A DNA stretch of 64,000 nucleotides from an uncultured Chloroflexia bacterium (GCA_963755115.1 CAVWIK010000003.1:359327-423326); one strand, 5' to 3'; numbered from the stretch's first letter, positions 1-61,439 are shown. Numbers and translations are program-made. The notes: generated from the sequence alone by a model not told the origin.

Positions 1-738
1 GATGAAGAAGATCAGGGCACCGAGCGGCTGCTGGAAGATGTACCAGTTCGTGAACCAGCCTCCCTGGTTGTTCACGATCTGGTTGAGGCTCATCGTGCCG
101 GCCAGCAGGATCAGCCCGACCACCGACAGCGTCAGCGGGATCTCGTAGCTGATGACCTGCGCCGCAGAGCGGAGACCGCCCAGCAGCGAGTACTTGTTGA
201 AGCTCGACCAGCCCGCCATCAGCAGCCCGACGACGGCGAGGCCGCCGATCGCGAAGAAGTAGAGGAGCCCGATGTTCATGTCCGCGCCGAAGACGTTGGG
301 CGCGAACGGGATCACCAGCAGGCTCAGGACGCTGGTCAGGTAGACGACGACCGGCGCCCACGTGAAGACGAGTGGGTCGACGCCGGTCGGGGTGAAGTCC
401 TCCTTCATGAGGACCTTGAGGCCGTGGACCACCGACAGGAGCGAGCCGAAGGGACCGACGCGGTCCGGCCCGATCCGGAGGTTCATCAGGGCGATGACCT
501 TCATCTCCATGAAGATGATCAGGAACGCGGTCGGGATCGTCATCAGCAGGATGACCGTGACGGCCACCACGAACCGGACGATCGCCATGTTGTTCGCGAG
601 CAGGTCGACGATCGTCGGGCCGAGGATGGCGACGAACGCGACGAGCGCGATCGTCAGCGCCAGCAGCACGGGCACGACCGTGAACACGATCTTGCCGGGG
701 AGCGTGAGCCTCGACCAGGACCGCCCGATGACCGTCAT
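1..738 (-). CDS. nuoH: NADH-quinone oxidoreductase subunit H (3' end runs off the window)
   Basis: Manual translation from ATG 738: hydrophobic protein with MKVIALMNLRIGPDRVGPFG...GLKVLMKED, GWSSFNKYSLLGGLRSAAQVISYEIP. Not in the ORF track. Confidence 0.95.
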   Translation of the reverse strand, partial: MTVIGRSWSRLTLPGKIVFTVVPVLLALTIALVAFVAILGPTIVDLLANNMAIVRFVVAVTVILLMTIPTAFLIIFMEMKVIALMNLRIGPDRVGPFGSLLSVVHGLKVLMKEDFTPTGVDPLVFTWAPVVVYLTSVLSLLVIPFAPNVFGADMNIGLLYFFAIGGLAVVGLLMAGWSSFNKYSLLGGLRSAAQVISYEIPLTLSVVGLILLAGTMSLNQIVNNQGGWFTNWYIFQQPLGALIFFI

Positions 739-745
739 GTCGCCG

Positions 746-1966
746 TCACTTGTCGACGCCGCCCATGATCGGGTCGAGGCTGGCCATGACGGCCATGGTG
801 TCGGCGACGAGGTGGCCCGGAACGGTGAGCCCGACGGACTGGAGGTTCACGAACGAGGGGTCGTGGATCCGCATCCGGAACGGCTGGTCCGTGCCGTCGC
901 TGATGACATAGGCGGCGTACTGGCCGCGTGGCCCCTCGATGCCGGCATAGGCGCGTCCGGGCCGCGGCCGGAGCAGCCTCGGCAGCTTCGCCATGATCGG
1001 CCCGTCGGGCATCTGGTGGAGGCACTGGTCGATGATCCGCAGGCTCTGCTTGATCTCGTCCATCCGGAGCAGGTAGCGCGCCAGGCAGTCGCCCTCCGAC
1101 CGGGTCGGGATGTCGAAGTCGAGCTCCGGGAAGACGCTGTACGGGTGGGCGCGGCGCAGGTCGAACGGCACGCCGGTCGCCCGCAGGTTCGGGCCGGTCA
1201 GGCACATCCGCAGCGCGGTCGCGGTGTCGATCGTCCCGAGGCCGCGCATCCGGCGCACGAAGATCTCGTTCTCGTTGAGGAGCGCGTTGCCGGACTCGAT
1301 CTGCTCGGCCGCGTGGCTCATCCAGTCGCCGAGGCGGCTCATGAACTCGTGGTTCAGGTCGCCGTTCACGCCGCCGATCCGGAAGTAGTTGAACAGCATC
1401 CGCTGGCCGGTGAGCGACGCGAGGAGGTCGACGATCTCGTCGCGCTCGATGAACGACCACAGGATCGGTGTCAGGCCGCCGAGGTCGAGGGCCATCCAGC
1501 CGAGGAAGAGGGCGTGACTCGCGATCCGGTTGAGCTCGGTCGAGAGGACCCGGATGTACTCGGCGCGGCGCGGGACCTGGACGTCGAGGAGCTTCTCGAA
1601 CGCCATGACCCCGGGCCACTCGCAGAAGAGCGAGCTGACGTACTCGAGCGGGTCGAGGTAGCAGATCGCCTGGTGATAGTCGGCGTTCTCGCACAGCTTC
1701 TCGACGCCGCGATGGAGGTAGCCAAGGACCGGGTCGAGGTCGACGACCTTCTCGCCGTCGAGCTTGAGGACGACCCGCAGCACGCCGTGGGTGGACGGGT
1801 GCTGCGGCCCCATGTTGATGAGCATCTCGCCGTCGCCGAGCGTGTAGAACTCGGCCTCGCGCTCGGTCCGCGGCGGATAGGGCGGGACGGGCTCGTAGAC
1901 GCCGAGCTCGCGGTCGAGCGTCACGCGGGGATCGTCGGCGGAGGGGCGTTGCGCGGTGACGGGCAT
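746..1966 (-). CDS. nuoD: NADH-quinone oxidoreductase subunit D
   Basis: NMGPQHPSTHGVLR, GYLHRGVEK, EGPRG and C-terminal DPIMGGVDK motifs. Confidence 0.96.
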   Translation of the reverse strand: MPVTAQRPSADDPRVTLDRELGVYEPVPPYPPRTEREAEFYTLGDGEMLINMGPQHPSTHGVLRVVLKLDGEKVVDLDPVLGYLHRGVEKLCENADYHQAICYLDPLEYVSSLFCEWPGVMAFEKLLDVQVPRRAEYIRVLSTELNRIASHALFLGWMALDLGGLTPILWSFIERDEIVDLLASLTGQRMLFNYFRIGGVNGDLNHEFMSRLGDWMSHAAEQIESGNALLNENEIFVRRMRGLGTIDTATALRMCLTGPNLRATGVPFDLRRAHPYSVFPELDFDIPTRSEGDCLARYLLRMDEIKQSLRIIDQCLHQMPDGPIMAKLPRLLRPRPGRAYAGIEGPRGQYAAYVISDGTDQPFRMRIHDPSFVNLQSVGLTVPGHLVADTMAVMASLDPIMGGVDK

Positions 1967-1984
1967 GGTCGGCTGGGACCTCGA

Positions 1985-2533
1985 TCAGTCCGGCGCGCGA
2001 CGGAGCAGCGTCGCGGCCGGGGCGTTGCGTGGCGTGTGGGTCCGCTCCATCGGCCGGACGCCACCGCCCGGCGAGCGCGCGGCGTCGTCGGCGAGGTAGA
2101 AGTCCTTGCGGAGCGGGAAGCTCATGTAGTCGGGCGGCATGTAGATGCGGCGCAGGTCCCGGTTGCCCTCGAAGGTGATCCCGAACATGTCGTACGCCTC
2201 GCGCTCCTGCCACTCCGCGCCCTTCCAGAGGAACGTCGCGGAGGGGACCCGCGGATCCTCGCGGGAGAGACCGTCGGCGACGACCCGGAGCCAGTCCGGC
2301 GTGGTGTCGCTCCACAGGTGGTAGACGACCTGCATGACCTCGCCGGTGTCGACGCCCGCGAGGTCGGCGAGGAACTCGAAGCGGAACTCGGGCTCGTCGT
2401 GGAGCGCGGTCAGGACGGGGACCACGTCGCCGGCCGCGATGCGCATCTCCGTCTCGTCATGCCGCTGCCGGATGGGCCCGGTGAGCTGGTCGGCGAAGCG
2501 CGACTCGAGGCGGGCCTTGAACCGTCGATCCAC
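1985..2533 (-). CDS. nuoC: NADH-quinone oxidoreductase subunit C
   Basis: WQEREAYDMFGITFEG and FPLRKDF motifs. GTG start 2 nt after the nuoB stop. Confidence 0.92.
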   Translation of the reverse strand: MDRRFKARLESRFADQLTGPIRQRHDETEMRIAAGDVVPVLTALHDEPEFRFEFLADLAGVDTGEVMQVVYHLWSDTTPDWLRVVADGLSREDPRVPSATFLWKGAEWQEREAYDMFGITFEGNRDLRRIYMPPDYMSFPLRKDFYLADDAARSPGGGVRPMERTHTPRNAPAATLLRRAPD

Positions 2534-2535
2534 GC

Positions 2536-3258
2536 TCAGACGTCCTGCGGGACGGTGGGCCCGATGGCCCGCTCCGGCCAGTGGCCCCGGCGATCCTTGA
2601 CCAGCTGCTGGAGCTTCATCATCCCGTAGATGAGGCCCTCCGGGCGCGGCGGGCAGCCCGGGATATAGACGTCGACCGGCATCACCCGGTCGATCCCCTC
2701 GACCGTCGAGTAGCTCCGCTTGTAGCGACCACCGGAGCACGTGCAGTCGCCCAGGGCGACGCACCACTTCGGCTCGGGCATCTGCTCCCACAGGCGGACG
2801 AGCGGGCCGGCCATCTTCGTCGTCAGGGTCCCCGCGACGATGAGGACATCGGCCTGGCGCGGGCTCGCACGGAACGGGAACATCCCCCAGCGGTCCATGT
2901 CGTTCTTGGACGTCGCGGCCGACATCATCTCGATCGCACAGCAGGCCAGCCCCGACAGCAGCGGCCAGAGGCTGTTCATGCGGATGAGGTCCAGGACGTA
3001 GTCGGCCTTCGTCGGGATGACCTCGAGCGCGCCGCTCCAGCGCGCATCGTCGCGCCGTCCAAGCCCGCTCGCCTCGAACTCGCGCAGGTGCGTGATGTCG
3101 CTGGGTCGGCCGCCCTCGTACGCCGCCGGATCGGCCGCCTGCCAGAGGGTGTTCGGGACGACGATCGGCGCCAGGACGTCGCGCTCGCCGTCGGCCGGCG
3201 TGAGTGCCGACTCTTCCGCGGCCTTGGGGCCCTTCGGGCGGCTCGGCGTCAGCGCCAC
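2536..3258 (-). CDS. nuoB: NADH-quinone oxidoreductase subunit B
   Basis: GLACCAIEM, SPRQAD, PVDVYIPGCPPRPE (cluster N2 ligands), with an N-terminal extension. Confidence 0.96.
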   Translation of the reverse strand: MALTPSRPKGPKAAEESALTPADGERDVLAPIVVPNTLWQAADPAAYEGGRPSDITHLREFEASGLGRRDDARWSGALEVIPTKADYVLDLIRMNSLWPLLSGLACCAIEMMSAATSKNDMDRWGMFPFRASPRQADVLIVAGTLTTKMAGPLVRLWEQMPEPKWCVALGDCTCSGGRYKRSYSTVEGIDRVMPVDVYIPGCPPRPEGLIYGMMKLQQLVKDRRGHWPERAIGPTVPQDV

Positions 3259-3617
3259 GTCAGGGCTCCCTTCCGCCAGGCATACGCCAGCCCGAGCAGC
3301 AGGATCGTCACGAAGATCACCATGCTGACGAGCCCGCCCGCGAGCGCGTCGATGTCGAGCGAGTTGAAGTTGATCGCCCAGAGGTAGATGAAGACCACCT
3401 CGATGTCGAAGGCGACGAAGAGCAGCGCATAGATGTAGAACGACAGGCCGAACCGACCGTGGGTGTCACCGTAGGTGTCGATGCCGGACTCGTACGGGAG
3501 GCCCTTGTGCTCGTCCCCACGGTTCCGATGCGACACGATCCAGGCCGCGCCGATGGTCAGGAAGACGAACGACACGCCCGCGAAGGCGAAGCCCACGATG
3601 TACCAGATGCCGGTCAA
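3249..3617 (-). CDS. nuoA: NADH-quinone oxidoreductase subunit A
   Basis: Three TM segments, PYESG and FVAFDIEVVFIYLW. TTG start with GGGAG upstream. Confidence 0.95.
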   Translation of the reverse strand: MTGIWYIVGFAFAGVSFVFLTIGAAWIVSHRNRGDEHKGLPYESGIDTYGDTHGRFGLSFYIYALLFVAFDIEVVFIYLWAINFNSLDIDALAGGLVSMVIFVTILLLGLAYAWRKGALTWR

Positions 3618-3812
3618 CCGAACTCCCTTCGAGCGACAGGCCGGAGGGCTCGCGTCGCTGGCTGGAGACCCCTGAGCGAGCGGGCAGGCGCACCCGCACG
3701 AGGCGCACCGACGCCTGTCGGCATTCTAGCAGTGGGAGCGGGCCGGAGCGGCGGCGGGAGGGGTGCCCGGACGGTGCCGGGATCGTGCTCGCGGGCCGCG
3801 GGCGGGATGCGT

Positions 3813-3863
3813 CGGGGAGCGGCGCGCGCCGAGCGCGCGTGCAGGTTCGCGCGCCGCTCCCCG
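3813..3863. repeat. Perfect 16-bp inverted repeat with a 19-nt loop in the intergenic region upstream of nuoA
   Basis: CGGGGAGCGGCGCGCG (3813-3828) and CGCGCGCCGCTCCCCG (3848-3863). Confidence 0.85.
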
Positions 3864-3930
3864 TCAGGTCGTGCCCGACCGTGGCAAATCGTGCGCGACG
3901 GCCGAGATGAGGGGCAATAGGTATATCGCC

Positions 3931-5156
3931 CTAGTCCGGGGCGCTCCGGGGTGGTACCCGCCGGCCGGGCTGACGGAAGGCGAAGGCCGATGGGAGCGGC
4001 CCGTCCGGCCATGCCCGGCCGAAGCCCATCACGCGGAATCGGCCCATCGCCGCCGGGTCGAGCATCCGCATGAGCGCCGAGCGGACGACCAGGTACTCGT
4101 CGAGCGAGGTCGCCGGATCGGCCTGGATCGCCCGCAGCCGCTCCTCGATACCGAGCCCCACGAGCGCCTCGGCCTGGGTCGTGATGCCGACGGTCGTCAG
4201 CCCGGCCCGGTGCGCTGCGCGCTCGACCGCGGTGACGTCGACATGCGCGGTCAGGTCCTGGCGGCCGACATGGCGGTACGGGTCGTCGTGCACCTGGTGG
4301 CGGACGTAGGCGCGGAGCGTGCCGTCGGGACGGCGTGCGGGATCGTACAGGTCGGTCGCCGGTGCGCCGTAGTCGATGAGGAGGAGCAGCCCGCGACGCA
4401 GACCGCCGGCCGCCTCGGCGACCCACCGATCGAGGTCGAGGCAGATCTCGGCGGTCTGGCCGTCGGCCAGGTCGATGCTCTCCGCTTCGAGGCGCGCGGC
4501 GAGACCCTCGGTCGGCTCGACCTCGACCTCGGTGAAGGGCCCGGCGGGCGACACGTCGACCGCGAGCTCGCGCAGGGTCAGTCCGCGCCGTCGGACGCGA
4601 TGGACCGGGAGGGCGTCGAGGACCTCGTTCGCGACGATGACGCCGTCGATCGGCTCCGGGGCGCCGGCCAGCCCGGCGTCGTCGAGCATGGCGGCCAGCC
4701 CTGACGCCGCGAGCCGGTCGCGGATCTCGACGATCCGGTGGGCGGACATCTCGACGGGCTGGTAGCGCACCCGTTCCTCGAGCGATGAGCCGCGGAGCGC
4801 TCCGAGCAGCGCGACCGCGAGCGCGCCGGTTCCCGCCCCGATACTCGCGGACGGTGAACCGGTCGGGCTCGCCGAGATGATGCCACGTCTCGAGGACGAG
4901 CCCCGACAGGGTCGCGCCGAAGATCGGGTGGAGCTCAGGGGCGGTGATGAAGTCGCCGGCGCGGCCGGGCCGGGGGTCCGGGCCGGCGTAGTAGCCCGCG
5001 TCCCCGTCGTAGAGGCTGATGGCCATGAACCGCGCGAACGGCATCGGGCCGTCACGCCGGATCTCGTCGCGGATGCGATCGGCGAGCTCGGCGTCCTCGC
5101 CGACCGCCGTCGAGGTCGGTCGGTGGCTCGCGTCGCAGGCCGGGCTCGATGTCCAT
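3931..5156 (-). CDS. MidA/NDUFAF7-family SAM-dependent methyltransferase (two apparent frameshifts, ~5105 and ~4840)
   Basis: Joined frames give MPFARFMAISLY..GYY..GDFITAPELHPIFG, E-x-GAGTG-x-LA, ANEVLDALP, LLIDYG, QDLTAHVD. Confidence 0.85.
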
Positions 5157-5159
5157 CGG

Positions 5160-6213
5160 TCAGCCGGCCGCCTGTCGCCCGATGACGAGCCGGATCCCGG
5201 GTCCGACCAGGGTGTGACCGCCGAGCAGGATCGGGATCGTCGCAGCCGCAGCGGCGGCCGTCAGCTCGCGCAGCCAGGGGTCCCCGATCCGCTCGGCGAG
5301 CAGCAGGTCCGAGGCGAAGCGGTCCTCGGCCGGCGGCCAGGCTCGCTCGTCGGCGCCGAGGCGATGGGCGAGAAGCACGCGCGTGTCGATGATCGCCGCG
5401 TCGGCCAGCGCGGCCAGGTGCGTCCCGAGGGACGCCGGTCCGTCCCGGTCGAGCAGGGCTCCCAGGACGGAGGCGGGTCGGCGCTGCCCCACCACGCTCG
5501 TGCGCAGGCCCCGTTCTTCGATGAGGGCCCGCGTCCGCGACCGCGTGTGCGTCTCCAGCCAGGCGACCGTCGCGGCGGAGGTCCGGCCGGCGACGAGCAA
5601 CTCGGCCCGCCGATCCGCCGCGACCGAGCGGATGGACGCCAGTCGGGATCGCACCTGGCTCGTGTCGACCGATCGCTGACCGGGCGGCTCCGCGACGCCG
5701 ATGAGGACGAGGTCGACCGGCCCGTCCAGGTCGATCGCGAGGCGCCAGCGACGACGAAGGTCGGTGACGGCGTAGCCGGCCTGCTCGGCCAGCCAGCGCG
5801 GCAGCGCGTTGTCGCCGGGGAGGTCCGGGACCACGGCGAGGCCGTCGGTCGCGCACGAGACCGCGATGACATCGGCGGAGTAGCGGTTGTTGGCGACGGC
5901 CCGCCGGTCGTCCGCCGCAGGCTGCGGCGACCAGGTCGCGACGGTCACGGGCGGTCGCGAGCGGGATCGCGCCGGAGCCAAGGATCACGAGGCCGCCCGG
6001 TCGGTCGGCGCGGACGAGGTCGCGGAGGCGTCTCCCGAACGGTGTATCGTCGGGCGGCCCGGCGACGATCCGGACATCGGCCGCTCCGGCCGCCTCGAAG
6101 CCGGACCGGTGGCGCACCGCGAGAGCGGCACGCGCGCCGGCGACCCAGCGTTCGATGAGACCGGCGTCCGGGGCCGGATCGGGGTGGAGGATGCGGACGG
6201 CGACCGGTCGCAT
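5160..6213 (-). CDS. Conserved hypothetical protein, possibly CofC/MobA-like nucleotidyltransferase fold with a C-terminal extension (frameshift ~5920)
   Basis: NNRYSAD and LAIDLDGPVDL (resembles the CofC DvDtpeDL motif). The fold call is by resemblance only. Confidence 0.5.
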
Positions 6214-6258
6214 CCGGCGAGTCTAGGGCCCGGATCGCCCGATGAGCCCGAGGAGGCC

Positions 6259-6885
6259 GTGACCGACCGTCGAGTCCGCGCGTACATCGGTCTCGGGGCG
6301 AACGTCGGCGACGCCGAGAGGACCCTGACCGAGGCGGTCCACGCCCTCGGATCCGCGCCCGGACTGCGGCTCCGCGGCGTCTCGCGCCTGTACGCGACGG
6401 TCCCGGTCGGCGTGACCGACCAGCCCGAGTTCCGCAACGCTGCGGTCGCCCTCGACGTCCCCGCCGGCCCGGACCCCGCGGCGGGCGCGACGACGCTGCT
6501 GATCGCGCTCAAGGACCTGGAACGAGCTGCCGGTCGTCGCGCCGGTCGCCGCTGGGGGCCGCGCGAGCTCGATCTCGACCTGCTGGTCTTCGGCCGGGCG
6601 CGGCTTGCCATCGAACGCCCACCCGACGCCCGGTCGATCGACGCGGCCGCCGACCCGGCCAGGGCGGCGAGGCTGCTGGAGGTCCCGCACCGCGATGCCA
6701 GCGAGCGGCTCTTCGTCCTGGCGCCGCTCGCGGACCTGGCGCCCGGGCTCGTTCCGCCCGGCTGGGGCGAGACCGTCGACACCGCCCGTCGTCGCCGGCT
6801 CGCGCTCGAGGGCGAGGCGGCCGTTCGGCCGATCGGCACCTGGGATGCCGCGGCGGGTCGCTGGCGCCGGCGTCAGCCGAGGTAG
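6259..6885 (+). CDS. folK: 2-amino-4-hydroxy-6-hydroxymethyldihydropteridine diphosphokinase
   Basis: AYIGLGANVG, QPEFRNAAV, RWGPRELDLDLL, PH..ERLFVLAPL. AGGAGG RBS before GTG 6259. Confidence 0.95.
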   Translation: MTDRRVRAYIGLGANVGDAERTLTEAVHALGSAPGLRLRGVSRLYATVPVGVTDQPEFRNAAVALDVPAGPDPAAGATTLLIALKDLERAAGRRAGRRWGPRELDLDLLVFGRARLAIERPPDARSIDAAADPARAARLLEVPHRDASERLFVLAPLADLAPGLVPPGWGETVDTARRRRLALEGEAAVRPIGTWDAAAGRWRRRQPR

Positions 6886-7595
6886 CGGGTCTCGAGCGTC
6901 GTCTCCACCGCGGTCCCGTCCGGCCCCGGCTCGACGCGATAGGCCCAGGCGGCGGGTCTCGACGCGACGACCGCGTGCAGCTCACCGTCCCGGAAGACGA
7001 GGGCCGCTCCGTCATCGGCGGCATACCCCGCGGGCAGCCGCCGTTCCGCGACGAGCCGCTGGTAGAGCGGCCGGCGTCCCGGCTCGCCGTCGTAGTGCGG
7101 GCAGTGGCTGCCGGCGATGAACCCGAGGCCATCGTCGATCGGCGCGAGCTCCGGCCCGAAGGAGTCCGTGGTGCCGCCCTCGAACCAGCACAGCGATCCG
7201 GCCGACAGGCCGGCCATGACGATCCCGGCCTCGTACGCGGCGCGCAGGATGCGATCCACCCCGTGGACCCGCCACACGGCGAGCATGTTCATGGTGTTCC
7301 CGCCCCCGACGTAGATGACGTCCTGGGCGAGCAGGAACCGCTCGATGTCCGTGACGGATCGGGAGAACAGCTCGAGGTGCGAGGCCTCCACGGCCTTCGG
7401 GTCGAACGCGGCGTGGAATTCCTCGATGTACGCCACCGAGTCGCCGCTGGCCGTCCCGAGGAAGCACACGCGCGGGCGCTCGACACCGCGCGTCCGCCGC
7501 GCCAGCGCGAGGAGCTCGTCGTCGAGCAGCGGGTTCTCCGGCTCCATCGAGAAGCCGCCGCCACCCATCGCCACGATCCAGCGCGGTGGTTCCAT
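6873..7595 (-). CDS. pepE: Peptidase E / peptidase S51 family
   Basis: IYVGGGNT, GLSAGS nucleophile elbow, PHYD. Confidence 0.85.
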   Translation of the reverse strand: MEPPRWIVAMGGGGFSMEPENPLLDDELLALARRTRGVERPRVCFLGTASGDSVAYIEEFHAAFDPKAVEASHLELFSRSVTDIERFLLAQDVIYVGGGNTMNMLAVWRVHGVDRILRAAYEAGIVMAGLSAGSLCWFEGGTTDSFGPELAPIDDGLGFIAGSHCPHYDGEPGRRPLYQRLVAERRLPAGYAADDGAALVFRDGELHAVVASRPAAWAYRVEPGPDGTAVETTLETRYLG

Positions 7596-7651
7596 GCGCC
7601 GATGCTACGCTCCGCATCTGGCCCACCGCCCGCCCAGCCGGAGACCCATCG

Positions 7652-8638
7652 ATGACGAAGATCGGCTACGCCGCGATGCTCGAGCAGTTCCACCCGACCG
7701 ACCTGCTCGACTGGTGTGCCGCGGCCGAGACGGCCGGCTTCGAGGCGGGGTTCATGGTCAGCGAGCACTTCCACCCATGGACGCCACAGCAGGGCCAGAG
7801 CGCGTTCGCGTGGTCGTTCATGGGGGCGCTCGGGACGCGCACGTCGCTGCCGTTCGGGACCGCCGTCACGTGCCCAGGCTTCCGCTACCACCCCGCGGTC
7901 ATCGCCCATGCGGCCGCGACCCTGGGCGCCATGTACCCGGGTCGGTTCTACCTGGGTCTGGGCGCCGGCGAGGCGCTCAACGAGCACGTCGTCGGGGGGG
8001 TCTGGCCGGAGATCGGCATCCGCAGCGCGATGATGTTCGAGGCCATCGAGATCATCAACAAGCTGTTCACCGGCAAGGTCGTGAAGCACAAGGGCGAGCA
8101 TTTCACGCTCGAGAGCGCCCGCTTGTACACGATCCCGGAGGAGCCGGTGAAGGTCTACGTCGCGACGGCCGGACCCATCAACGCGAAGAAGGCCGGCAAG
8201 TTCGCGGACGGGATGATCACGGTGGGCGCGGCCGACGAGAAGATCAAGATGCTGTGGGAGAAATGCGACGAGGGCTGCCTCGAGGCCGGCAAGCCCATCG
8301 GGACCCCGAAGCTGCTCCAGATCCACGTGTCCTGGGCCCGCACGGACGAGGAGGCGATCCAGAACGCGGTCGTCGAGTGGCCGAACGGCGGGATGCCGTT
8401 CCCCAAGCAGGACATCAAGAACCCCGAGGACTTCGCGGCGATGGCCAAGCTCGTCCGGCCCGAGGACTTCAAGAACCGTGTTCTCATGACCAGCGACCTC
8501 GAGGCGCACACCGCCCACATCCAGCACTACGTGGACATGGGCTTCGACGAGATCCACCTCCACAACGTCGGGCGCAACCAGGCCGAGTTCATCGAGGTCT
8601 TCGGTCGCGAGGTCCTGCCGAAGCTGCGGCTCGGCTGA
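7652..8638 (+). CDS. F420-dependent LLM-class oxidoreductase (G6PDH/Fgd-like)
   Basis: SEHFHPW, TAVTCPGFRYHPAVIAHAAATL, LGLGAGEALNEH. GGAG RBS. Confidence 0.88.
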   Translation: MTKIGYAAMLEQFHPTDLLDWCAAAETAGFEAGFMVSEHFHPWTPQQGQSAFAWSFMGALGTRTSLPFGTAVTCPGFRYHPAVIAHAAATLGAMYPGRFYLGLGAGEALNEHVVGGVWPEIGIRSAMMFEAIEIINKLFTGKVVKHKGEHFTLESARLYTIPEEPVKVYVATAGPINAKKAGKFADGMITVGAADEKIKMLWEKCDEGCLEAGKPIGTPKLLQIHVSWARTDEEAIQNAVVEWPNGGMPFPKQDIKNPEDFAAMAKLVRPEDFKNRVLMTSDLEAHTAHIQHYVDMGFDEIHLHNVGRNQAEFIEVFGREVLPKLRLG

Positions 8639-52789: not shown

Positions 52790-54031
52790 TCAGACCCGCT
52801 CGAAGGCCATCGCCACGGACCCGCCGCCGCCGAGGCAGAGGGTCGCGAGGCCATAGCGGCCATCGCGTCGGGCGAGCTCGTGGAGGAGCGTCGCTACGAC
52901 CCTGGCGCCCGATGCGCCGACCGGGTGGCCGAGCGCGATCGCGCCGCCGTTCACGTTGACCTTGTCCCAGTCGAAGCCGAGCTCCCGGCCGTCGGCGAGG
53001 ACCTGCGCCGCGAACGCCTCGTTGATCTCGATGAGATCGAACGCCTCGATCGGCATCTCGATCCGATCGAGCAGCCGGCGGACGCCGTGGATCGGGGCGA
53101 GGAAGAGCCACTTGGCCTCGATATCGGCCTGGGCGTACCCGATGATCCTGGCCAGGGGCTTGAGGCCGTACCGCTCGACGGTCCGCTCGCTGACGACGAC
53201 CGTCGCCGCGCCGCCGTCCGTGATGCCGGGCACGTTGCCGGCCGTGGCGGTCGCGCTCGTCGCGTCGCCGCGATCATCGCCGTCCGGCAGGTCGAAGGCA
53301 GGCTTCAGTCGTGCGAGCGCCTCGATCGTCGTGTCCCGCCGTGGGCCCTCGTCGAGCGAGACGATGGTCTCGCGTCCCTTGGCGTCGCGAACCGTGACCG
53401 GGGCGATCTCGGCGTCGAACCGGCCCGCGTCCATGGCCGCGATCGCGTTCATGTGGCTGCGCAGCGCGAACGCGTCCTGGTCCTCGCGACTGATCTGCCG
53501 CGCGATGGCGACGCGTTCCGCGTGCGTGCCGACATGGCAGTCCTCGACCGCGCACCACAGCGCGTCGTGCACGGTCGCGTCGACGACGGCTCCGTCGCCG
53601 AGGCGATAGCCGAAGCGGGCACGCGGCAGGAGGTACGGCGCGCCGTTCATGCTCTCCATCCCACCGGCAACGACGACGTCGGCGTCGCCGGCACGGATCT
53701 CGGCGGCACCGAGCATGATCGCCTTCAGCCCCGAGCCGCAGACCTTGTTGATCGTCGTCGCGCTCGTGGTCACCGGCAGTCCACCGAGGATCGCCGCCTG
53801 GCGCGCGGGTGCCTGGCCGGCGCCGGCCTGGATCACCTGGCCCATGAGGACCTCGTCGACCGGGGTCTCGGCCGGCAGGCCGCTCCGCTCGACCGCCGCC
53901 CGGATCGCGACGCCGCCGAGCTCGACCGCCGGAACGCCGGCCAGCGCGCCACCGAACTTGCCGATCGGCGTCCGTGCCGCGCTGACGAGATAGACGCCGC
54001 CATTGCGGCCAGTTGGGGTCGTGTCATCCAT
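52790..54031 (-). CDS. phaA: Acetyl-CoA acetyltransferase (beta-ketothiolase)
   Basis: NKVCGSGL, NEAFA, GHPVGASG, CLGGG; within the PHA cluster. Confidence 0.92.
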   Translation of the reverse strand: MDDTTPTGRNGGVYLVSAARTPIGKFGGALAGVPAVELGGVAIRAAVERSGLPAETPVDEVLMGQVIQAGAGQAPARQAAILGGLPVTTSATTINKVCGSGLKAIMLGAAEIRAGDADVVVAGGMESMNGAPYLLPRARFGYRLGDGAVVDATVHDALWCAVEDCHVGTHAERVAIARQISREDQDAFALRSHMNAIAAMDAGRFDAEIAPVTVRDAKGRETIVSLDEGPRRDTTIEALARLKPAFDLPDGDDRGDATSATATAGNVPGITDGGAATVVVSERTVERYGLKPLARIIGYAQADIEAKWLFLAPIHGVRRLLDRIEMPIEAFDLIEINEAFAAQVLADGRELGFDWDKVNVNGGAIALGHPVGASGARVVATLLHELARRDGRYGLATLCLGGGGSVAMAFERV

Positions 54032-54100
54032 GATGGTTCTCCGGATCTTGCGTGCGACAGGTCCCCGGTCGGGGCGGGTGGGCTCGCCGGTCGGCCGGCG

Positions 54101-54862
54101 TTACGTGTACAGCCCGCCGTTGATCTCGATGACCTGACCGGTGATGTAGTTGCCGTTGGTGACGAGGTAGGCGACGAGCTGGGCGATCTCCTCCGGCTGC
54201 CCGAAGCGGCCCATCGGGACCTTCGCCAGGATCGCGGACCGGACATCCTCGGGCATGGCCGCGATCATCTCGGTCTCGATGAACCCGGGCGCGATCGCAT
54301 TGACCGTCACGCCCTTGCGGGCGACCTCGAGCGCGACCGACTTCGTGAAGCCGACGACGCCCGCCTTCGCGGCCGCGTAGTTGGCCTGGCCGAAGTTGCC
54401 GTGGAGGCCGACCACGGAGCTGATGCTGACGATCCGGCCGTATCCGGCCTGGACCATGTGCGGGAGGACACGCGAGGTCATGTGGAACATGCTCGTGAGG
54501 TTCGTCTGGATGACGGCATCCCACTCCTCGAACGTCATCTTGGCCATCGAGCGGTCGCGGGTGATGCCGGCGTTGTTGACCAGGACATCGATCTTGCCGA
54601 AATGCTCGGCGACGCTGTCGACGGCCGGTCCGATGGCCGGCGCATCGAGAAGGTCGAGGCCGAAGATGAACGCCTGGCCGCCGGACGCGACGATCTCGGC
54701 GGCCACCGCTTCGGCATCCGCCTTGTTGTCGTGCGCTGCCTCCCCGGGGAGATAGGCGACGGCCACGGAGGCGCCGTGTCGTCCGAGTTCGAGAGCGATC
54801 GCCCGGCCGATGCCGCGCGATCCGCCGGTGACGAGGCAGGACCTGCCGGTCATCTCAGCCAT
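54101..54862 (-). CDS. phaB: Acetoacetyl-CoA reductase
   Basis: GGSRGIG, NNAGITRD, GNFGQANYAAAKAG; adjacent to the thiolase and phasin genes. Confidence 0.85.
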   Translation of the reverse strand: MAEMTGRSCLVTGGSRGIGRAIALELGRHGASVAVAYLPGEAAHDNKADAEAVAAEIVASGGQAFIFGLDLLDAPAIGPAVDSVAEHFGKIDVLVNNAGITRDRSMAKMTFEEWDAVIQTNLTSMFHMTSRVLPHMVQAGYGRIVSISSVVGLHGNFGQANYAAAKAGVVGFTKSVALEVARKGVTVNAIAPGFIETEMIAAMPEDVRSAILAKVPMGRFGQPEEIAQLVAYLVTNGNYITGQVIEINGGLYT

Positions 54863-54941
54863 CGCTGGACCTCCTTGACTCGGCCGGACAGACGGGGCCG
54901 GCCGGCGATCGCCGGTCGACCCCGTGGTATCGGCCGCTTGT

Positions 54942-55334
54942 TCAGCGGGTGATGGCTTCGGTCGCCGACGTGGCTGCCTTGACGGCGGTCTGCCAGCTCT
55001 CGAGGGTCGCCTGCTGCGTGCGCTTGACCAGCGTCGAGAACTGCTCGACCGCCTGCCGGTTGCCCTTCACGCCCATGTCGAACAGGCGCAGGCCCGCTTC
55101 CATGGCGGCGTTCTGCGCTTCGAAGGCGGTCTTGATGGTCGCCTCGCTCTGGACCGACCAGGTGCCGAGCAGGTCGCGGCTGAGCGCGGCGCTGTCGTTC
55201 ACATAAGATCGCGCCGCCTCGAACGAGGCCCTCGCGGTCTCGGTGCCATTGCGTGCGGCCTGCGTCGCGATGCGACTTGCTTCCTTGACGGCAGCGGCTG
55301 CCGACTCGGGAATCTCGCTCGTCGTGGTGGACAT
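54942..55334 (-). CDS. phaP: Phasin-like PHA granule protein
   Basis: 130 aa, Ala/Thr-rich and helical, no Cys or His; AGGAGG RBS; position in the pha cluster. Confidence 0.65.
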   Translation of the reverse strand: MSTTTSEIPESAAAAVKEASRIATQAARNGTETARASFEAARSYVNDSAALSRDLLGTWSVQSEATIKTAFEAQNAAMEAGLRLFDMGVKGNRQAVEQFSTLVKRTQQATLESWQTAVKAATSATEAITR

Positions 55335-55388
55335 CGTCGTCCTCCTTCGGCTACTATCCAGCTGCCTCTATTTGCGCGACAACTCTAT

Positions 55389-55401
55389 GTGCATATTGCA
55401 C
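55389..55401. promoter_or_regulatory. Palindrome in the AT-richer divergent phaP/phaQ promoter region
   Basis: GTGCA-TAT-TGCAC, next to TAGGAT (55411-55416, +) and TTGACA (55422-55417, -). Confidence 0.45.
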
Positions 55402-55466
55402 TTAGTGTGGTAGGATTGTCAAGTGCCGCCGGCAAGGGCGGAGAAGAGGACCTCGAAAGACGCGCC

Positions 55467-56084
55467 ATGCCTGACCGCCGAACGACCACCGATGCCAGCG
55501 CCGCTCCCGATCGGCCGCGCCGTGCCCGCGCCGTCCGGCCACCTGGCGCGGCTGCGAGTCCTGCGCCGGAGCCCCTCGACGTCGATGGGCAGGCCCCCGC
55601 TGCCGACGGCCACGCCGCTGCTGACGGCCCCGGCCCCGCCGAGCCGGCCGAGCCGGCCGAGACGGCCGAGGCGGCCGAGGCGGCCGATGAGCGCGAGGCG
55701 TTTCCCGGCTGGCCACCGCGCGACTTCCTATCGCCGTTCGTCCTTCTCGCGGTCTCGCTCCAGCGGGCTCACGGCTACGCGATCGAGGACCTCCTGCGTG
55801 GCTTCGGCCTGTTCGGGATCACGATGAGCACCCTGTACCGCACCCTCCGGCAGATGGAGAAGGACGGCTTCCTCGAGTCGGTCTGGGAACCCGGTCCGAC
55901 CGGCCCGGCCCGCCGCATGTACACGATCACCGATGCCGGCGATGCCTGGCTGGAGAGCTCGGCGGCGATGCTCAATGTCTATCGCGAGACGATCGACCGG
56001 TTCTTCGGCCTGTATGACGCTGGCCCCGGCGCGAGGCGCCGCCAGCCCGACGAGCCGACTGGTGAAAAGGAGACACGGCAATGA
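55467..56084 (+). CDS. phaQ: PhaQ-like PadR-family PHB-responsive repressor with a low-complexity N-terminal extension
   Basis: [43 protein letters not shown] closely follows Bacillus megaterium PhaQ as I recall it. Confidence 0.8.
55638..55688 (+). repeat. 9-bp tandem repeat encoding (AEP/AEA)n in the PhaQ extension
   Basis: GCCGAG(C/A/G)CG x5 plus a partial unit. Confidence 0.75.
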
Positions 56085-56812
56085 CGAAGACCGGAGCAGC
56101 GGGCACCTCGACCGATCCATACGAGGTCTGGCGCGAGATGTACGACGCCAACGAGCGCGCCTGGAGCACGGCCCTCGACCAGGCGATGAACAGTCCGGAG
56201 TTCGGCGAATCGAGCGGGAAGATGCTCGAGACCATGCTCGCCGCACAGAAGGCCGTCCGCACCAGCATGCGCACCTTCCTCGAATCGATCAACGTGCCGA
56301 CCCGCGAGGACATCGCCGGGCTCGGCGAGATCGTGATCGGGGTCGAGGAGAAGGTCGACCAGGTCCTCGACCGCCTCGACGCCATCGAACAGGCCATCCG
56401 CGCCGTCCCCGCCGGTCCCCCGGGCCCGACGGGTGAGGCTGGCCCGATCGGTCCGGGCGGTCCGGTCGGTGCGGTCGGTCCTGCCGGTGCCATCGGTCCC
56501 GCGGGTCCTGCCGGTGCCGCTGGCCCCGTCGGTCCGGCCGGTGTCGTTGGCGCCGGGGTCCCGCCGGTGCCTGCTGGTCCCGTCGGTCCGGCCGGTGCCC
56601 CCGGTGTCGCTGGTGCCGTGGGTCCCGCCGGGCCCGCAGGACCCGCTGGCTCCGTCGCTCCGGCTGCGTCCGTCGGAGCCGCCGTGCCCGCCGCGCCGGT
56701 CGCCCGCACCACGACGGCCAAGCCCGCCGCTCCCGCCAAGAAACGCGCCCCGGCCAAGACCACGACTCGTGCCAAGCCCGCCAAGGGCACCAGCGCAAGG
56801 GGCATCCGATGA
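56081..56812 (+). CDS. phaR: Class IV PHA synthase subunit PhaR fused to a collagen-like domain and a Lys/Ala/Pro tail
   Basis: [12 protein letters not shown]....AMNSPEF...[18 protein letters not shown] matches the Bacillus PhaR pattern. ATGA-coupled to both phaQ and phaC. Confidence 0.82.
56414..56656 (+). repeat. Collagen-like Gly-X-Y repeat (16 + 9 triplets, interrupted by VPPVPA)
   Basis: [48 protein letters not shown] / [27 protein letters not shown]. Confidence 0.9.
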
Positions 56813-57879
56813 CGACCTCGCCGTGGCCGGAATGGCCGAACGCCGAGACCATGTGGTCATCGAACGAACGAGCGCTGGAGATGGCGCGAGCCCTGCTCAC
56901 GTCGCCGGACGCACCCGTCGGTCTGACCCCGAAGGAGCTCATCTGGCGCAAGAACAAGGCTCGCCTGTACCGCTACATCCGCTCCGAGCCGGCGACCCAC
57001 AAGACGCCGATCTTCCTGGTCCTACCGCTCATCAACCGGGCCTACATCCTTGACCTCCGTCCGGGAGCGAGCTTCGTCGAGTTCCTGCTCGGCGAAGGCT
57101 TCGACGTCTTCCTCATCGACTGGGGTACGCCGGGCGACGAGGATCGGGCGCTCGACGTCACGACGCTCATCACCCGCTACCTGCCGCGCGCCGCGAAGGC
57201 GATCCAGCGGACGACGGGTTCGGAGCAGATGACGGTCCTCGGCTACTGCATCGGCGGCACGTTGGCGGCCTGCTTCGCGGCCCTCAACCCGGACATCACG
57301 CGCAACCTCGTCCTGCTGACGGCCCCGCTCGACTTCGCGAACGCCGGGCAGTTCGGCCAGATGACGCGACGGGACGTCTTCCCGATCGATCAACTGGTCG
57401 ACACGTTCCCGATCGTGCCGGGACAGATGCCGGAGGTCGGTTCGAAGCTGCTCAACCCGATGTCCAGCTACGTGGGGACGTATCGCCAGCTCTGGGACAA
57501 GCTCGCCGATCCCAAGTTCGACGTCACCGCCTGGCAGGCGATGTACCGCTGGGTGAACGAAGGCGTGCCATTCGCCGGGGCGGCGTTCCGCCAGTGGATC
57601 GTCGAGTTCTACCAGGAGAACCGGCTGTCCCAGGACACGCTCGAGATGGATGGCCGCCCGGTGCGCCTGTCGGACATCCGCTGCCCGCTGCTCAACATCG
57701 CCGCGAGTCGCGACCAGATCGCGCCCCGGGCGACGACGAATATCGCGACGGAGCGCGTCAGCAGCGACGACGCGTCAGAGATCCTCGTCGAGGGCGGCCA
57801 CGTCGGGATCGTCGTCGGCCGGAATGCCAGCCAGAACCTCTGGCCCAAGGTCGGCGTCTGGCTCGCCGAGCACGACTGA
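56809..57879 (+). CDS. phaC: PHA synthase catalytic subunit, class III/IV size (356 aa)
   Basis: [32 protein letters not shown], lipase-like box GYCIGG, catalytic D (RDQI) and H (GGHVG). Confidence 0.93.
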
Positions 57880-57895
57880 CCCGACCGACCGGAGG

Positions 57896-60193
57896 CTAGG
57901 CGACCAGCGGGACCGGCGTCCCGATCAGCTCGGCGAGCCGCTGCCCGTCGGGCTGGACCAGTTCGGCGACCCGTGCCGGGTCGACGTCCGCGACGATGAT
58001 CTGGCCGATCTCGGTCCGAACGACCGTGAAGATGCCCAGCTCGTGCATGCGCTGCGTCTGGAGCCGGTTGTCCTCGGTCGGGGTGAGGTAGTGGAGGGAC
58101 GCGGCCCCGTAGCGGTGGATCAGGAAGAGCTGCGTGAGCGTCATCAGCCGGCGCCGGCGGATCGACGGCTCGGTGTGCTGGTCCCGGATCGAGAGGATGC
58201 TCCGACCCCGCCGGTCGACGATGCTCGCGAAGATCACGTCGGCCAGGGGCTCCTCGGAGTCGTCGAGGACGCGGAGCTCGAGCAGATCGGAGCCCGCGGT
58301 GTGGGGTCGCAGCTCGACGCGGATCGTCCCCGGCCGCTCCCAGCGGGTCGACCAGGCGGCGAGCCAGCCCTCGAGCAGCCTCGTCGGGACCTCCGTCTGG
58401 ACGAGGTGCTGATGCTGCGTCGAGCCCTTGCCCATGGCCTTCGTCGCGGCGGTCCGTCCCGACGCGGCCATCAGCGCGGCATCGAGCCGGTCGCCGCCGA
58501 CGAGGGACTGCGGGGTCCGATACGGCGATTCGAGCAGCCGGAACTTGCGCTGGAGCCGGGCGAGGGCGAGCATGCCGTCCTCGCGTAGGGCCCTCGTGAA
58601 CTCCTCGGCGGCGAGGCCGTCGATCTGGTGGCCGCCGTACGTGATGAAGTTGAACACGAACCCGAGCTTGCCGAGGTCCTCGGGGAACCGCCGCATCTCC
58701 TCGTCGCTCAGGCCGGTGGTGTCCCAGTTGAACGAGGGCGAGAGGTTGTACGCGAGCATCTTGTCCGGGTACTCGGCATGGATCGCCTCCGCGAAGCGTC
58801 GCGCGTCCTCGAGATCGGCGGTCTTGGTCTCCATCCACAACAGGTCGGCGAACGGCGCCGCAGCCAGCGACTTGGCGATCGCGTAGTCGATCCCGCCCTG
58901 GACCTGGAAGTAGCCGTCCGGGGTCTTGGGCAGCTCAGGATCCCAGGTGACCCGGATGCCGAGCTCGTCGGCCTTCGCCCGGATCTCCGAGAAGGACGCG
59001 CGACGCGCGAAGGCACGCCATGCCTCGAGCGCCATGTCGAACCGCTCGCCCTCGGCGATGCGGTCCTCGAGGATGTCCGCGACGGCCTCGCCATAGGTCA
59101 TGAGGCCGGCCTCCGCCTGCCAGGTCTCGGCGTAGCGGGTGTCGATCGCGTCGAGCAGGTGCTCGGTCGGGGTGCCGGGCTCGGCCGCGCGGATCGCCTC
59201 GGCGTTCCGTTCGATCACCGTCATGAGCCCGACCTGGACGAGCCACGCCGTGGCGCGCTGCATCTCGGCCTCGGGCACCGCGAACAGGAGGTGGCCCCGG
59301 ATGTCATCGAGGCCGAGGTCGAACAGCGCCTTCTGGATCGCGAGGAAGGCCACCCGGTAGCTCGGCAGCCCGAGGTTCGTCGCCCCGAGGATGAACGGCT
59401 GATCCCGCTCGTCGCCGCGGTCGTCGAGGAACGTCGCCGCCTCGGCGTCGGTCCGCGCGACGATGATCCCGGGCACTCGCATGATGTCGAGCTGGAAGCG
59501 CGCCGCGTTGAGCCGCTTGTTCTGCTCGTCCTGGGCGACGAGGACCTTGCCGCTCTGGTGCCCGCACTTCTTGGCGCCCGGCTTCTGGTCCTCGATGTGG
59601 TAGCCGGGCACGCCGACCTCGACGAATCGACGGACGAGGTTCCGGACGTGCGCATCGCCGCCATGCCCCGTGTCGGCGTCCGCGATGATGAATGGGCGGA
59701 AGTCGACCTCGGGGGTGGTCCGCCGTCGCTCCTCGGTCATCTGGGACCGGGCGAAATACTGGTTCTTGTCGGCCGCGAGCAGCGCACGGACGAGGCCGGC
59801 TGCCTCGTCGGGGACCTGTCCGAGCGGGTAGCTCGCCAGGTCGGGCCCGGGATCCTCCGCCTTCGACCCCTTCGCCGAGGTCGCCCAACCGCCGAGGTAG
59901 ATGGCCTCGATGCCGAGCCGCTTCATGACGACCGCCTGGCCCGGGGAGTACGGCCCGAAGGTCGTGATCTGCCGGCCTTCGGCGAACAGCTCGCGGAGCC
60001 GGGCATGGAACGCCTCGGCGGCCGTCCGGGCGACCGTGTAGTCGGGCTGGATCGTGCCCTGCTGGGCGGCGACCTCACGCGCGGTGTGGAGTCGCACGAT
60101 CCCCTCGAACCGGGGCTGGGCGAACCACTCGCGAGCGGCGTCGACCTGGATCTCGAACGGATCCGCGGTGGTGGGCATGGCAAGCGCGCTCAT
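57896..60193 (-). CDS. aceA: Long-form isocitrate lyase (mycobacterial ICL2 type, about 765 aa)
   Basis: KKCGHQ catalytic motif, [23 protein letters not shown], and a C-terminal domain RRLMTL..LIHRY..HY.TPT.DN resembling ICL2. Confidence 0.93.
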
Positions 60194-60203
60194 CGGTCGG
60201 TCG

Positions 60204-60395
60204 TCACTCGTTGGAATGGTCCCGCGAGCAGTCGTCGGGGCACTCGCAGTCGGCCCAGAAGCTGTACGGGTAGGTGCCGCCCCCGACGGAGGTGCGCTCG
60301 TCGTCCGCTGTCCGACCGGTATCGAGCCCATGTGCCGGCGTCGCCATGGCGAACGGCGTCGGGACGGGGTGTCGGGGATCCGGGGTGTATTCCAT
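60204..60395 (-). CDS. Small Cys/His peptide (63 aa) directly upstream of aceA
   Basis: ATG 60395 to TGA 60204, ending [18 protein letters not shown]; 10-nt gap to the aceA ATG. Confidence 0.55.
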
Positions 60396-60467
60396 CGGGC
60401 GACCTGCGTAGCGGGGCTGGGAGAGCGACCTTACGGGGTCGTCGGCCCATCCGTCCAATCGAAAGTT

Positions 60468-60494
60468 TGATGGGGTATCATCGACAGCATCGAT
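60468..60494. promoter_or_regulatory. Two abutting LysR-type T-N11-A boxes
   Basis: TGAT-GGGGT-ATCA (60468-60480) and ATCGA-CAGCA-TCGAT (60480-60494), between the divergent aceA and LysR genes. Confidence 0.65.
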
Positions 60495-60515
60495 CACTGA
60501 CGGGGAGGTCGTTCC

Positions 60516-61439
60516 ATGCTTCTCGGGCAGATCGAAGGGTTCGTCGAGATCGCTCGGCAGGGGAACCTGGGTCGTGCCGCACACGCCCTCTCGATCAGCC
60601 AGCCGGCACTCAGCGCCCGCCTCCAGGGACTCGAGGTGGAGCTCGGCGCCTCGCTCTTCCGGCGGACCCATGCGGGCATGGTCCTCACGCCGGCCGGCCG
60701 CGCCTTCCTGCCGCATGCGGACCGTGCGATCGAAGCGATCCGCAGCGGCGGTTCACTCGTCCGGCAGCTCGAGCACGGGGTCATCGGCGAGCTCGCGCTC
60801 GCGGTCGCCCCCGCCGTCAGCGCCTACGTGCTGCCGGAGATCCTGGTGCGGTTCACGGAGCGACACCCCGACGTCCGGCTGCTCGTGCGCACCGGCCACT
60901 CGGAGGAGATCGTCGACCTGGTGGCGCGCGGCGAGGTCGACCTCGGGATCGTCCGCCAGCTCCGCGACGCGCGCGTCCGCAGCCTCCCGCTCTACGAGGA
61001 CGAGCTCCTCATGGTCGCGCGACCGGACCACCCGTTCGCCATCGCGGGGACCGTCGACGTCGAGGAGATCAGCCGCGCGCAGCTCATCCTGTTCGACCGC
61101 ACGTCGAGCTACTACGACGTGACGAATGCGCTGTTCCGCGTCGCCGGCGTCATCCCGCGGGGCGTCACCGAGGTCGACAACATCGAGGCGGCCAAGCGGA
61201 TGGTCGAGCGTGGTCTCGGCGTCGCGCTGCTCCCCGGGACGGCGGTCGCCGACGCGCTGGCCGCCGGCTCGCTCAAGGAGATCCGGCTCGCCGGGGCGGC
61301 GACCATCCGGCGGCAGATCGTGGCGGTCGAGCGGCTCGGCGAGCGTCCCGCGTCGCCGTCCCTGACCACCCTGTGGGAGCTCCTCGACCGGATCCCGGAG
61401 CTCATCCCCCGGGCACTGCCGATCGCCGCCGACGGCTGA
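60516..61439 (+). CDS. LysR-family transcriptional regulator
   Basis: GNLGRAAHALSISQPALSARLQGLE..LFRRT..LTPAG helix-turn-helix, followed by a substrate-binding domain. Confidence 0.94.
   Translation: MLLGQIEGFVEIARQGNLGRAAHALSISQPALSARLQGLEVELGASLFRRTHAGMVLTPAGRAFLPHADRAIEAIRSGGSLVRQLEHGVIGELALAVAPAVSAYVLPEILVRFTERHPDVRLLVRTGHSEEIVDLVARGEVDLGIVRQLRDARVRSLPLYEDELLMVARPDHPFAIAGTVDVEEISRAQLILFDRTSSYYDVTNALFRVAGVIPRGVTEVDNIEAAKRMVERGLGVALLPGTAVADALAAGSLKEIRLAGAATIRRQIVAVERLGERPASPSLTTLWELLDRIPELIPRALPIAADG

Follow-up and report, generated by a model that had tools for sequence, protein, structure and literature searches.

Here, we describe a six-gene polyhydroxyalkanoate (PHA) cluster at positions 52790-57879 of a 64,000-nucleotide stretch of DNA from an uncultured Chloroflexia bacterium (GCA_963755115.1, CAVWIK010000003.1:359327-423326), which was analysed as a whole and is called the window below. 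The open reading frame (ORF) list and the family scans confirm what the first-pass annotation of this DNA had read from the sequence, namely six intact ORFs in which phaP-phaB-phaA diverge from phaQ-phaR-phaC. We consider it very probable that this is a functional chromosomal cluster of the class Limnocylindria for the synthesis and packaging of a polyhydroxybutyrate (PHB)-type polymer. Its parts are class IV-like but form a separate deep lineage, and the clade of its synthase PhaC stands outside class III in the tree described below and cannot be shown to be the sister of the class IV enzymes of Bacillota.

In the mechanism that we propose on the basis of homology, PhaA would condense two acetyl-CoA, PhaB would convert acetoacetyl-CoA to (R)-3-hydroxybutyryl-CoA, and a two-subunit synthase would polymerise the latter. 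This synthase is predicted to need both PhaC, with its presumed catalytic residues Cys147-Asp302-His331, and a small partner of the PhaR type. The coat of the granule would be formed by a small, helical phasin-like protein. A PhaQ-like repressor of the PadR family is expected to bind a single 21-bp palindrome between the divergent promoters and, by analogy with Bacillus PhaQ, to respond to PHB: the nascent polymer would titrate the repressor away, and phasin, monomer supply and synthase would be derepressed together.

As a reference for the Bacillus-type system we used a Bacillota locus (L080; GCA_050457685.1, NCBI genome, 36% GC) with the arrangement phaJ-phaP(PhaP_Bmeg)-phaQ(PadR) / phaR-phaB-phaC. 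It contains no phaA, in agreement with what had been stated at first about the Bacillus cluster. For each of its PhaQ, PhaR, PhaB and PhaC proteins, the corresponding window gene is the best or only match in the genome to which the window belongs.

Synthase subunits and their class

The catalytic subunit is of the short format (about 40 kDa) and carries the box GYC147IGG, of the G-X-C-X-G-G type, and its D302 and H331 align with the catalytic residues of both the Bacillota and the class III references. All 36 orthologues compared keep triad and lipase box unchanged, and the window PhaC is the sole PhaC in its genome. It is 42% identical to the Bacillota PhaC (343 aa aligned) and 31-34% identical to class III gammaproteobacterial PhaC. 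We calculated a maximum-likelihood (ML) tree under LG+C20 with six class III references, each with a neighbouring PhaE over the cut-off, two Bacillota class IV sequences, and further actinobacterial, planctomycete and thaumarchaeal sequences. In this tree, the Limnocylindria PhaCs group together with 100/100 support, separate from the class III clade (98/97); their clade, Bacillota class IV and two metagenomic lineages meet in one polytomy. The approximately unbiased (AU) test rejected neither a grouping of Limnocylindria with Bacillota class IV (p 0.086) nor one with class III (p 0.36). Hence, the PhaC tree gives no positive support for class IV, and it is the partner and the regulator that support this label. 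The class IV assignment of the first-pass annotation is supported by the PhaR-type subunit and the PhaQ-like regulator with its operator, but not by PhaC, which has a clade of its own, nor by the phasin, which is not Bacillus-type.

The small subunit had been named PhaR, with a grouping with PhaE, the subunit of class III synthases, held out as the contrary outcome; by hidden Markov models (HMMs) and by hhalign, it falls with PhaR. It scored 72.8 bits on TIGR02132 (PhaR), where it matches profile positions 8-97 of 189 only and stays below the cut-off of 148.4, versus 19.7 bits on TIGR01834 (PhaE; cut-off 154.95). The score on PF09712 (PHA_synth_III_E) was 21.3 bits for a cut-off of 25.7, and both PhaE models were matched in the C-terminal part of the profile only. 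With hhalign, the core of the Limnocylindria subunits aligned to Bacillota PhaR at 99.6% (E 1e-23, score 136.9) and to the C-terminus of class III gammaproteobacterial PhaE at 95.3% (E 2e-8, score 56.0), while Bacillota PhaR and PhaE reached only 26% with each other. Judged by these profiles, the small-subunit family is on the PhaR side and at the same time bridges PhaR and PhaE. The identity to the Bacillota PhaR is 31% and covers the N-terminal 102 aa only.

Could the locus instead be a class III (PhaEC) system, in which the small subunit is a truncated PhaE and not a PhaR? The homology of the PhaR core to the PhaE C-terminus, the sub-threshold PHA_synth_III_E score and the AU test would all fit such an origin. 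The class III loci of purple sulfur and other gammaproteobacteria (L092-L097) also resemble the window in having a two-subunit synthase with a short PhaC and a synthase operon divergent from phaA-(phasin)-phaB, and this shared layout speaks for class III as well. We nevertheless regard a truncated PhaE as unlikely. The match to Bacillota PhaR is the stronger one with both methods, and PhaE proteins, with their length of about 320-420 aa, include a large N-terminal part of roughly 200 aa that is absent from the window subunit. In addition, the position of the Limnocylindria PhaCs outside the class III clade, the higher PhaC identity to Bacillota, and the presence of a PhaQ-type regulator with an operator argue for a PhaR-type partner.

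Is the PhaR-like subunit a particularity of Bacilli? PhaR has been tied to Bacilli plus two Clostridia (10.1101/693432), and the first-pass annotation had stated that class IV synthases and PhaQ regulation are described mainly from Bacillus. With the PhaR core, residues 1-110, as the query, 1.84 billion representatives were searched exhaustively, and 652 clusters (50% identity) were retrieved at E <= 1e-3, 142 of them at E <= 1e-10; one of the low-GC members belongs to the reference locus L080. The low-GC (Bacillota) PhaR clusters among them scored 167-228 bits on TIGR02132, over its cut-off, and PadR-x-PhaR-like-PhaC loci also occur in other metagenomic lineages. From these sequence matches, the PhaR-like module appears to be widespread, neither specific to Bacillus nor rare elsewhere. 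In IMG, the names 'PhaR subunit' or 'PHA_synth_III_E/Collagen' are already attached to some of these proteins.

Other lineages encode more distant subunits beside PhaC. Those of Solirubrobacterales and Planctomycetota reach only 15-29 bits on the PhaR model, and those of Nitrososphaera are PhaE-like, with 65 bits. In Solirubrobacterales/Thermoleophilia (L041-L060), very weakly PhaR-like subunits (15-23 bits) of 125-145 aa with Ser/Arg/Gly-rich tails stand beside PhaC with phaB directly downstream and represent a further branch of short-subunit synthases. A metagenomic contig (L085; JGI metagenome 3300054730, 1-8530) combines both synthase types in one locus: a class I-like PhaC of 605 aa, phaB, a PadR gene and a Phasin_2-like gene stand together with a short PhaC, a depolymerase-type gene (Esterase_PHB) and a PhaR/PhaE-like subunit of 279 aa, in which motifs are repeated at the N-terminus.

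The window subunit continues beyond its core (residues 1-110) with two tracts of GXY triplets, 16 at 112-159 and nine at 166-192, followed by a basic Ala/Lys/Pro tail at 193-243. There are 25 triplets altogether, and Pfam Collagen matches the subunit with 34.5 bits. The tail contains a PAKK motif and 11 K/R but no D/E. Of the 120 closest relatives (counted as clusters), 82 possess GXY tracts, and the median number of triplets is 17. In the other relatives, the spacer consists of 24-aa coiled-coil units in tandem, of the type AKIDRIAKRLDTIERAVRSRPAEV (L006, L011, L016, L025, L040), or is missing, and all 120 end in a basic Ala/Lys/Pro tail. Residues 112-243 (56414-56812 in the window) are the modular half among the genes that lie upstream of phaC in the relatives (L001-L040).

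This tail recalls PhaM of Cupriavidus necator, a PhaC1 activator and nucleoid tether with C-terminal PAKKA motifs (PMC9049629, PMC3556143), which tether granules to the nucleoid (PMC9049629). As in PhaM, an Ala/Lys/Pro-rich segment, here with PAKK, belongs to a protein that is expected to bind the synthase; however, PhaM is no homologue of the synthase subunit, and the resemblance is one of composition only. We speculate that the tail could have a PhaM-like nucleoid-tether role. More broadly, the PhaR core may dock PhaC, the GXY spacer may trimerise or act as a rigid rod, and the tail may hold PHB granules at the nucleoid as they form. In this case, a single polypeptide would be synthase subunit or activator and granule-segregation factor in one, and the bridging of PhaR and PhaE would make classes III and IV the ends of one continuum. 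We hold this combined scenario to be possible but rather doubtful.

Regulator with candidate operator and promoter

The regulator gene was assigned to phaQ at first, and its sequence points to a PhaQ-like protein with an operator that resembles the Bacillota one. TIGR02719 (PhaQ) gave 80 bits, the next PadR model 38.6. The protein is 33% identical to the Bacillota PhaQ over 121 aa, for which this PadR gene is the best match in the genome. Its start at 55467 is an ATG that is kept in relatives and opens an N-terminal extension of about 90 aa, acidic and rich in Pro, Ala and Glu, which is absent from Bacillota PhaQ. Within this variable extension, a 9-bp tandem repeat (GCCGAGCCG, 5.6 copies, 55638-55700) encodes a PAEPAE-type acidic repeat.

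The candidate operator is a 9-3-9 palindrome, which is common to the aligned Limnocylindria phaP-phaQ spacers of 38 loci. The window contains one match to it where 0.01 would be expected, and this is the sole match with 0 or 1 mismatch in the 3.94-Mb genome. The whole-genome scan thus found no further operator copies that would define a PhaQ regulon, and no depolymerase candidate emerged through a shared operator. From this pattern, the PhaQ-like regulator seems to control only the present locus. L084, an unrelated high-GC metagenomic locus of the PadR-x-PhaR-like-PhaC type, has a near-identical site, AGGTGCACACTGCACAT, immediately before its PadR gene, and the Bacillota phaQ-phaR spacer holds a similar one, TATGTGCAATTTACACCTAT.

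Next to the palindrome, the spacer alignment keeps a block that reads TTGACA on the minus strand, a candidate -35 element of a promoter for phaP-phaB-phaA. Inside the palindrome, 17 nt downstream of this TTGACA, stands TGCAAT; binding of the repressor would therefore occlude this promoter, as far as can be judged from the consensus only. Our promoter consensus scan itself did not report the TTGACA/TGCAAT pair, and it found no convincing promoter in the phaQ direction. In Bacillus megaterium, PhaQ is an autoregulated, PHB-responsive repressor of phaQ-phaP (PMC9049629).

Taken side by side, the window and the Bacillus/Priestia class IV systems share a short PhaC in which a Cys-Asp-His triad and a GYC(I/M)GG box are present, a small PhaR-type partner encoded just upstream, a PadR-family regulator that is PhaQ-like in the window, a similar operator core (GTGCA-N3-T[G/A]CAC) in the divergent spacer, and a phaB in the cluster. 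They differ in several respects. The identities are only 31-51%, and PhaQ, PhaR and PhaC all remain below the HMM cut-offs. The window phaQ heads the phaR-phaC operon, whereas the Bacillus phaQ is co-transcribed with phaP. On its divergent arm the window has phaA, phaB and the phasin gene and no phaJ, and this phasin is not PhaP_Bmeg. The window PhaQ has the extra N-terminus, PhaR shares the first 100 aa only, with GXY triplets and the basic tail in place of the Bacillus coiled-coil C-terminus, and neither tree nor AU test establishes PhaC as the sister of the Bacillota enzyme.

Host, distribution and descent

Limnocylindria are an uncultured class of Chloroflexota that is abundant in soil and freshwater. 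A PhaC scan of the genome collection yielded about 40 loci at 73-84% identity to the window PhaC, nearly all from metagenome-assembled genomes (MAGs) labelled Candidatus Limnocylindrales, Limnocylindria or 'uncultured Chloroflexia'. The high-GC host outside Bacillota that had been proposed is thus a member of Chloroflexota, class Limnocylindria. Its assembly (3.94 Mb, 79.6% complete) consists of four contigs, each with 70.6-71.3% GC, and the contig that holds the window is 1.08 Mb long.

The divergent layout phaA-phaB-phaP / phaQ-phaR-phaC was found in about 39 of these roughly 40 loci. Orthologues across the cluster are 60-92% identical, and gene order and operator are kept. In G285, a genome of another genus in the same family, the DNA identity to the window is about 81% (blastn) in phaA/phaB, in phaC and in the flanking isocitrate lyase (ICL) and LysR regulator genes alike, and this equal identity fits vertical descent. 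The window has a flat GC content of 0.67-0.76, with 0.67-0.73 for the six pha genes, and the GC content at third codon positions (GC3) of the six pha genes, 0.80-0.91, matches that of the neighbouring genes, 0.84-0.93, which bears out the host-like codon usage that had been noted.

Could the cluster have come recently from Bacillota by horizontal transfer, or could the contig be a misbinned Bacillota fragment, as the first-pass annotation had cautioned? The Bacillus-like parts list would fit such an origin. So would the patchy distribution: PhaC occurs in 23 of 401 sampled Limnocylindria genomes (12 of 65 genera) and in about 5 of 25 genomes of the window's own genus. Moreover, in a same-genus genome (G333; L098, G333:C3, 10412), the match to the window sets in precisely at 57892, directly behind the phaC stop at the phaC/ICL junction. 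This genome keeps ICL-LysR at 81% DNA identity without the pha genes, in the place of which unrelated DNA is found. On the other hand, the identity to Bacillota proteins does not exceed 51%, the cluster has about 70% GC and the GC3 of its neighbours while the Bacillota locus has 36% GC, the four contigs of the assembly are uniform in GC and the window's own is long, and all close homologues come from Limnocylindria-type MAGs with the same synteny. The shared 81% identity of pha and ICL-LysR genes with G285 fits vertical descent followed by losses. We regard both a recent transfer and a misbinned fragment as effectively refuted.

By its sequence relationships, the cluster thus appears to be old within Limnocylindria, yet repeatedly lost or exchanged. 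The description 'old, assimilated' holds for the synteny in about 39 relatives and the host-like codons, and less well for the patchy occurrence in class and genus.

The convergent phaC/ICL junction (57879-57896) is a site of presence/absence polymorphism within one genus. Convergent on phaC, the window carries a long ICL2-type isocitrate lyase with a divergent LysR regulator (57896-61439), and ICL-LysR stands beside phaC in at least eight related loci as well (L002, L005, L021, L022, L031, L036, L037, L099). Two acetyl-CoA-consuming routes, the pha cluster and isocitrate lyase, are thus repeated neighbours.

Gene complement and wider meaning

The features of the cluster are collected in Table 1. 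ATGA overlaps are present at both the phaQ/phaR and the phaR/phaC junction, and the plus-strand phaQ-phaR-phaC is therefore a translationally coupled operon. The thiolase is 79-92% identical to the orthologues of related loci.

Table 1. Genes and candidate regulatory elements of the pha cluster, in window coordinates.
Feature	Position	Strand	Basis
phaA, acetyl-CoA acetyltransferase (thiolase II), 413 aa	52790-54031	-	TIGR01930 432 bits (cut-off 240.55); Thiolase_N and Thiolase_C both matched
phaB, acetoacetyl-CoA reductase-type short-chain dehydrogenase/reductase (SDR), 253 aa	54101-54862	-	51% identity to Bacillota PhaB; context
phasin-like gene ('phaP'), 130 aa	54942-55334	-	position, conservation, predicted three-helix shape
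candidate PhaQ operator, 21-bp 9-3-9 palindrome CTATGTGCATATTGCACTTAG	55385-55405		kept in phaP-phaQ spacers
conserved TTGACA, candidate -35 of phaP-phaB-phaA promoter	55417-55424	-	TTGTCAA block kept in spacer alignment
phaQ-like PadR-family repressor gene, 205 aa	55467-56084	+	TIGR02719 best model; Pfam PadR 56 bits
phaR-like small synthase subunit gene, 243 aa	56081-56812	+	TIGR02132 best model
phaC, short (class III/IV-type) PHA synthase catalytic subunit, 356 aa	56809-57879	+	TIGR01836 best model

We assigned phaB by context, because the HMMs fail to separate it from FabG. The identity to the Bacillota PhaB extends over 252 aa, and the window phaB is the best match of that protein in the whole genome. 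The phasin-like gene is kept in at least 31 relatives with a mean column identity of 81%, and its ATG is preceded, at a distance of 6-11 nt, by a GGAGGA ribosome-binding site. Position, conservation and a low-confidence three-helix model weakly suggest a phasin.

Several observations weigh against a functional cluster of class IV-like parts. In the TIGRFAM check that had been suggested at first, the PhaQ, PhaR and PhaC models do rank best, but all three scores fall short of the curated cut-offs: in addition to PhaR (see above), PhaQ reaches 80 bits for a cut-off of 139.35 and PhaC 325 bits on TIGR01836 for a cut-off of 365.3. The claim that these proteins follow those of B. megaterium motif by motif is thus true in so far as they are related (31-42% identity to the Bacillota reference) and the PhaC triad is kept, but it goes too far for proteins that stay below the NCBIfam cut-offs and, in the case of PhaR, match in the core only. 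Further, the residue after the catalytic Asp, which is Gln in the window (Q303; PhaC 301-303, 57709-57717), varies among Gln, Pro, Ala and Leu over the 36 Limnocylindria PhaCs, whereas it is His in every other aligned short PhaC, that is, in Bacillota, gammaproteobacteria, Nitrososphaera, Solirubrobacterales and the metagenomic loci L084 and L085. For PhaB, the scores were 298 bits on TIGR01830 and 285 bits on TIGR01829 (cut-off 302), and HMMs alone cannot tell it from FabG. The phasin-like protein has no significant family match (best Phasin_2, 15.8 bits, E 0.016), no match to PhaP_Bmeg (PF09602) even at E 10 and no similarity to the Bacillota PhaP in BLASTP (E 0.07), and the AlphaFold2 model with its three long helices has a mean pLDDT (predicted local distance difference test) of only 46.6. 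Finally, no recognisable PHA depolymerase was found in the window, as had been reported at first. In the genome, which is 79.6% complete, the search returned one sub-threshold PF10503 match on another contig, none to TIGR01849, and only generic hydrolase matches outside the window to the depolymerase model NF050089.

Do these observations rather indicate a decaying or non-PHA relic, in which, for example, PhaC would function as an esterase while SDR and thiolase took part in fatty-acid metabolism? The sub-threshold scores, the replaced His beside the catalytic Asp, the missing depolymerase in the incomplete genome and the loss of the cluster in many relatives could be understood in this way. 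Such a relic is nevertheless very improbable: all six ORFs are intact, the synthase operon is translationally coupled, triad and lipase box are invariant among the 36 orthologues, and order and operator are kept among orthologues that are 60-92% identical. We therefore retain the reading of a probably functional PHB-type cluster with class IV-like parts.

What does this cluster mean for PHA biology? The PhaR subunit and the PhaQ repressor are conventionally tied to Bacilli (10.1101/693432; PMC9049629), Chloroflexi are listed only under class I or III (PMC8312272), and our literature search found no paper that links Limnocylindria and PHA. Here, a short PhaC and a short subunit of the PhaR type are seen together with a PadR repressor and a recognisably similar operator in Limnocylindria, and these parts are thus not Bacillus-specific. 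A small-subunit family that comprises at least 652 clusters (50% identity) and stands between PhaR and PhaE in profile space weakens the dichotomy of class III and class IV that is used in PHA synthase annotation. The most unusual element is the tail of the small subunit, collagen-like and basic, which could inform the organisation of granules, and the locus offers a testable operator-repressor pair. Finally, the cluster suggests a capacity for carbon storage in some Limnocylindria, which bears on the ecology of this class.

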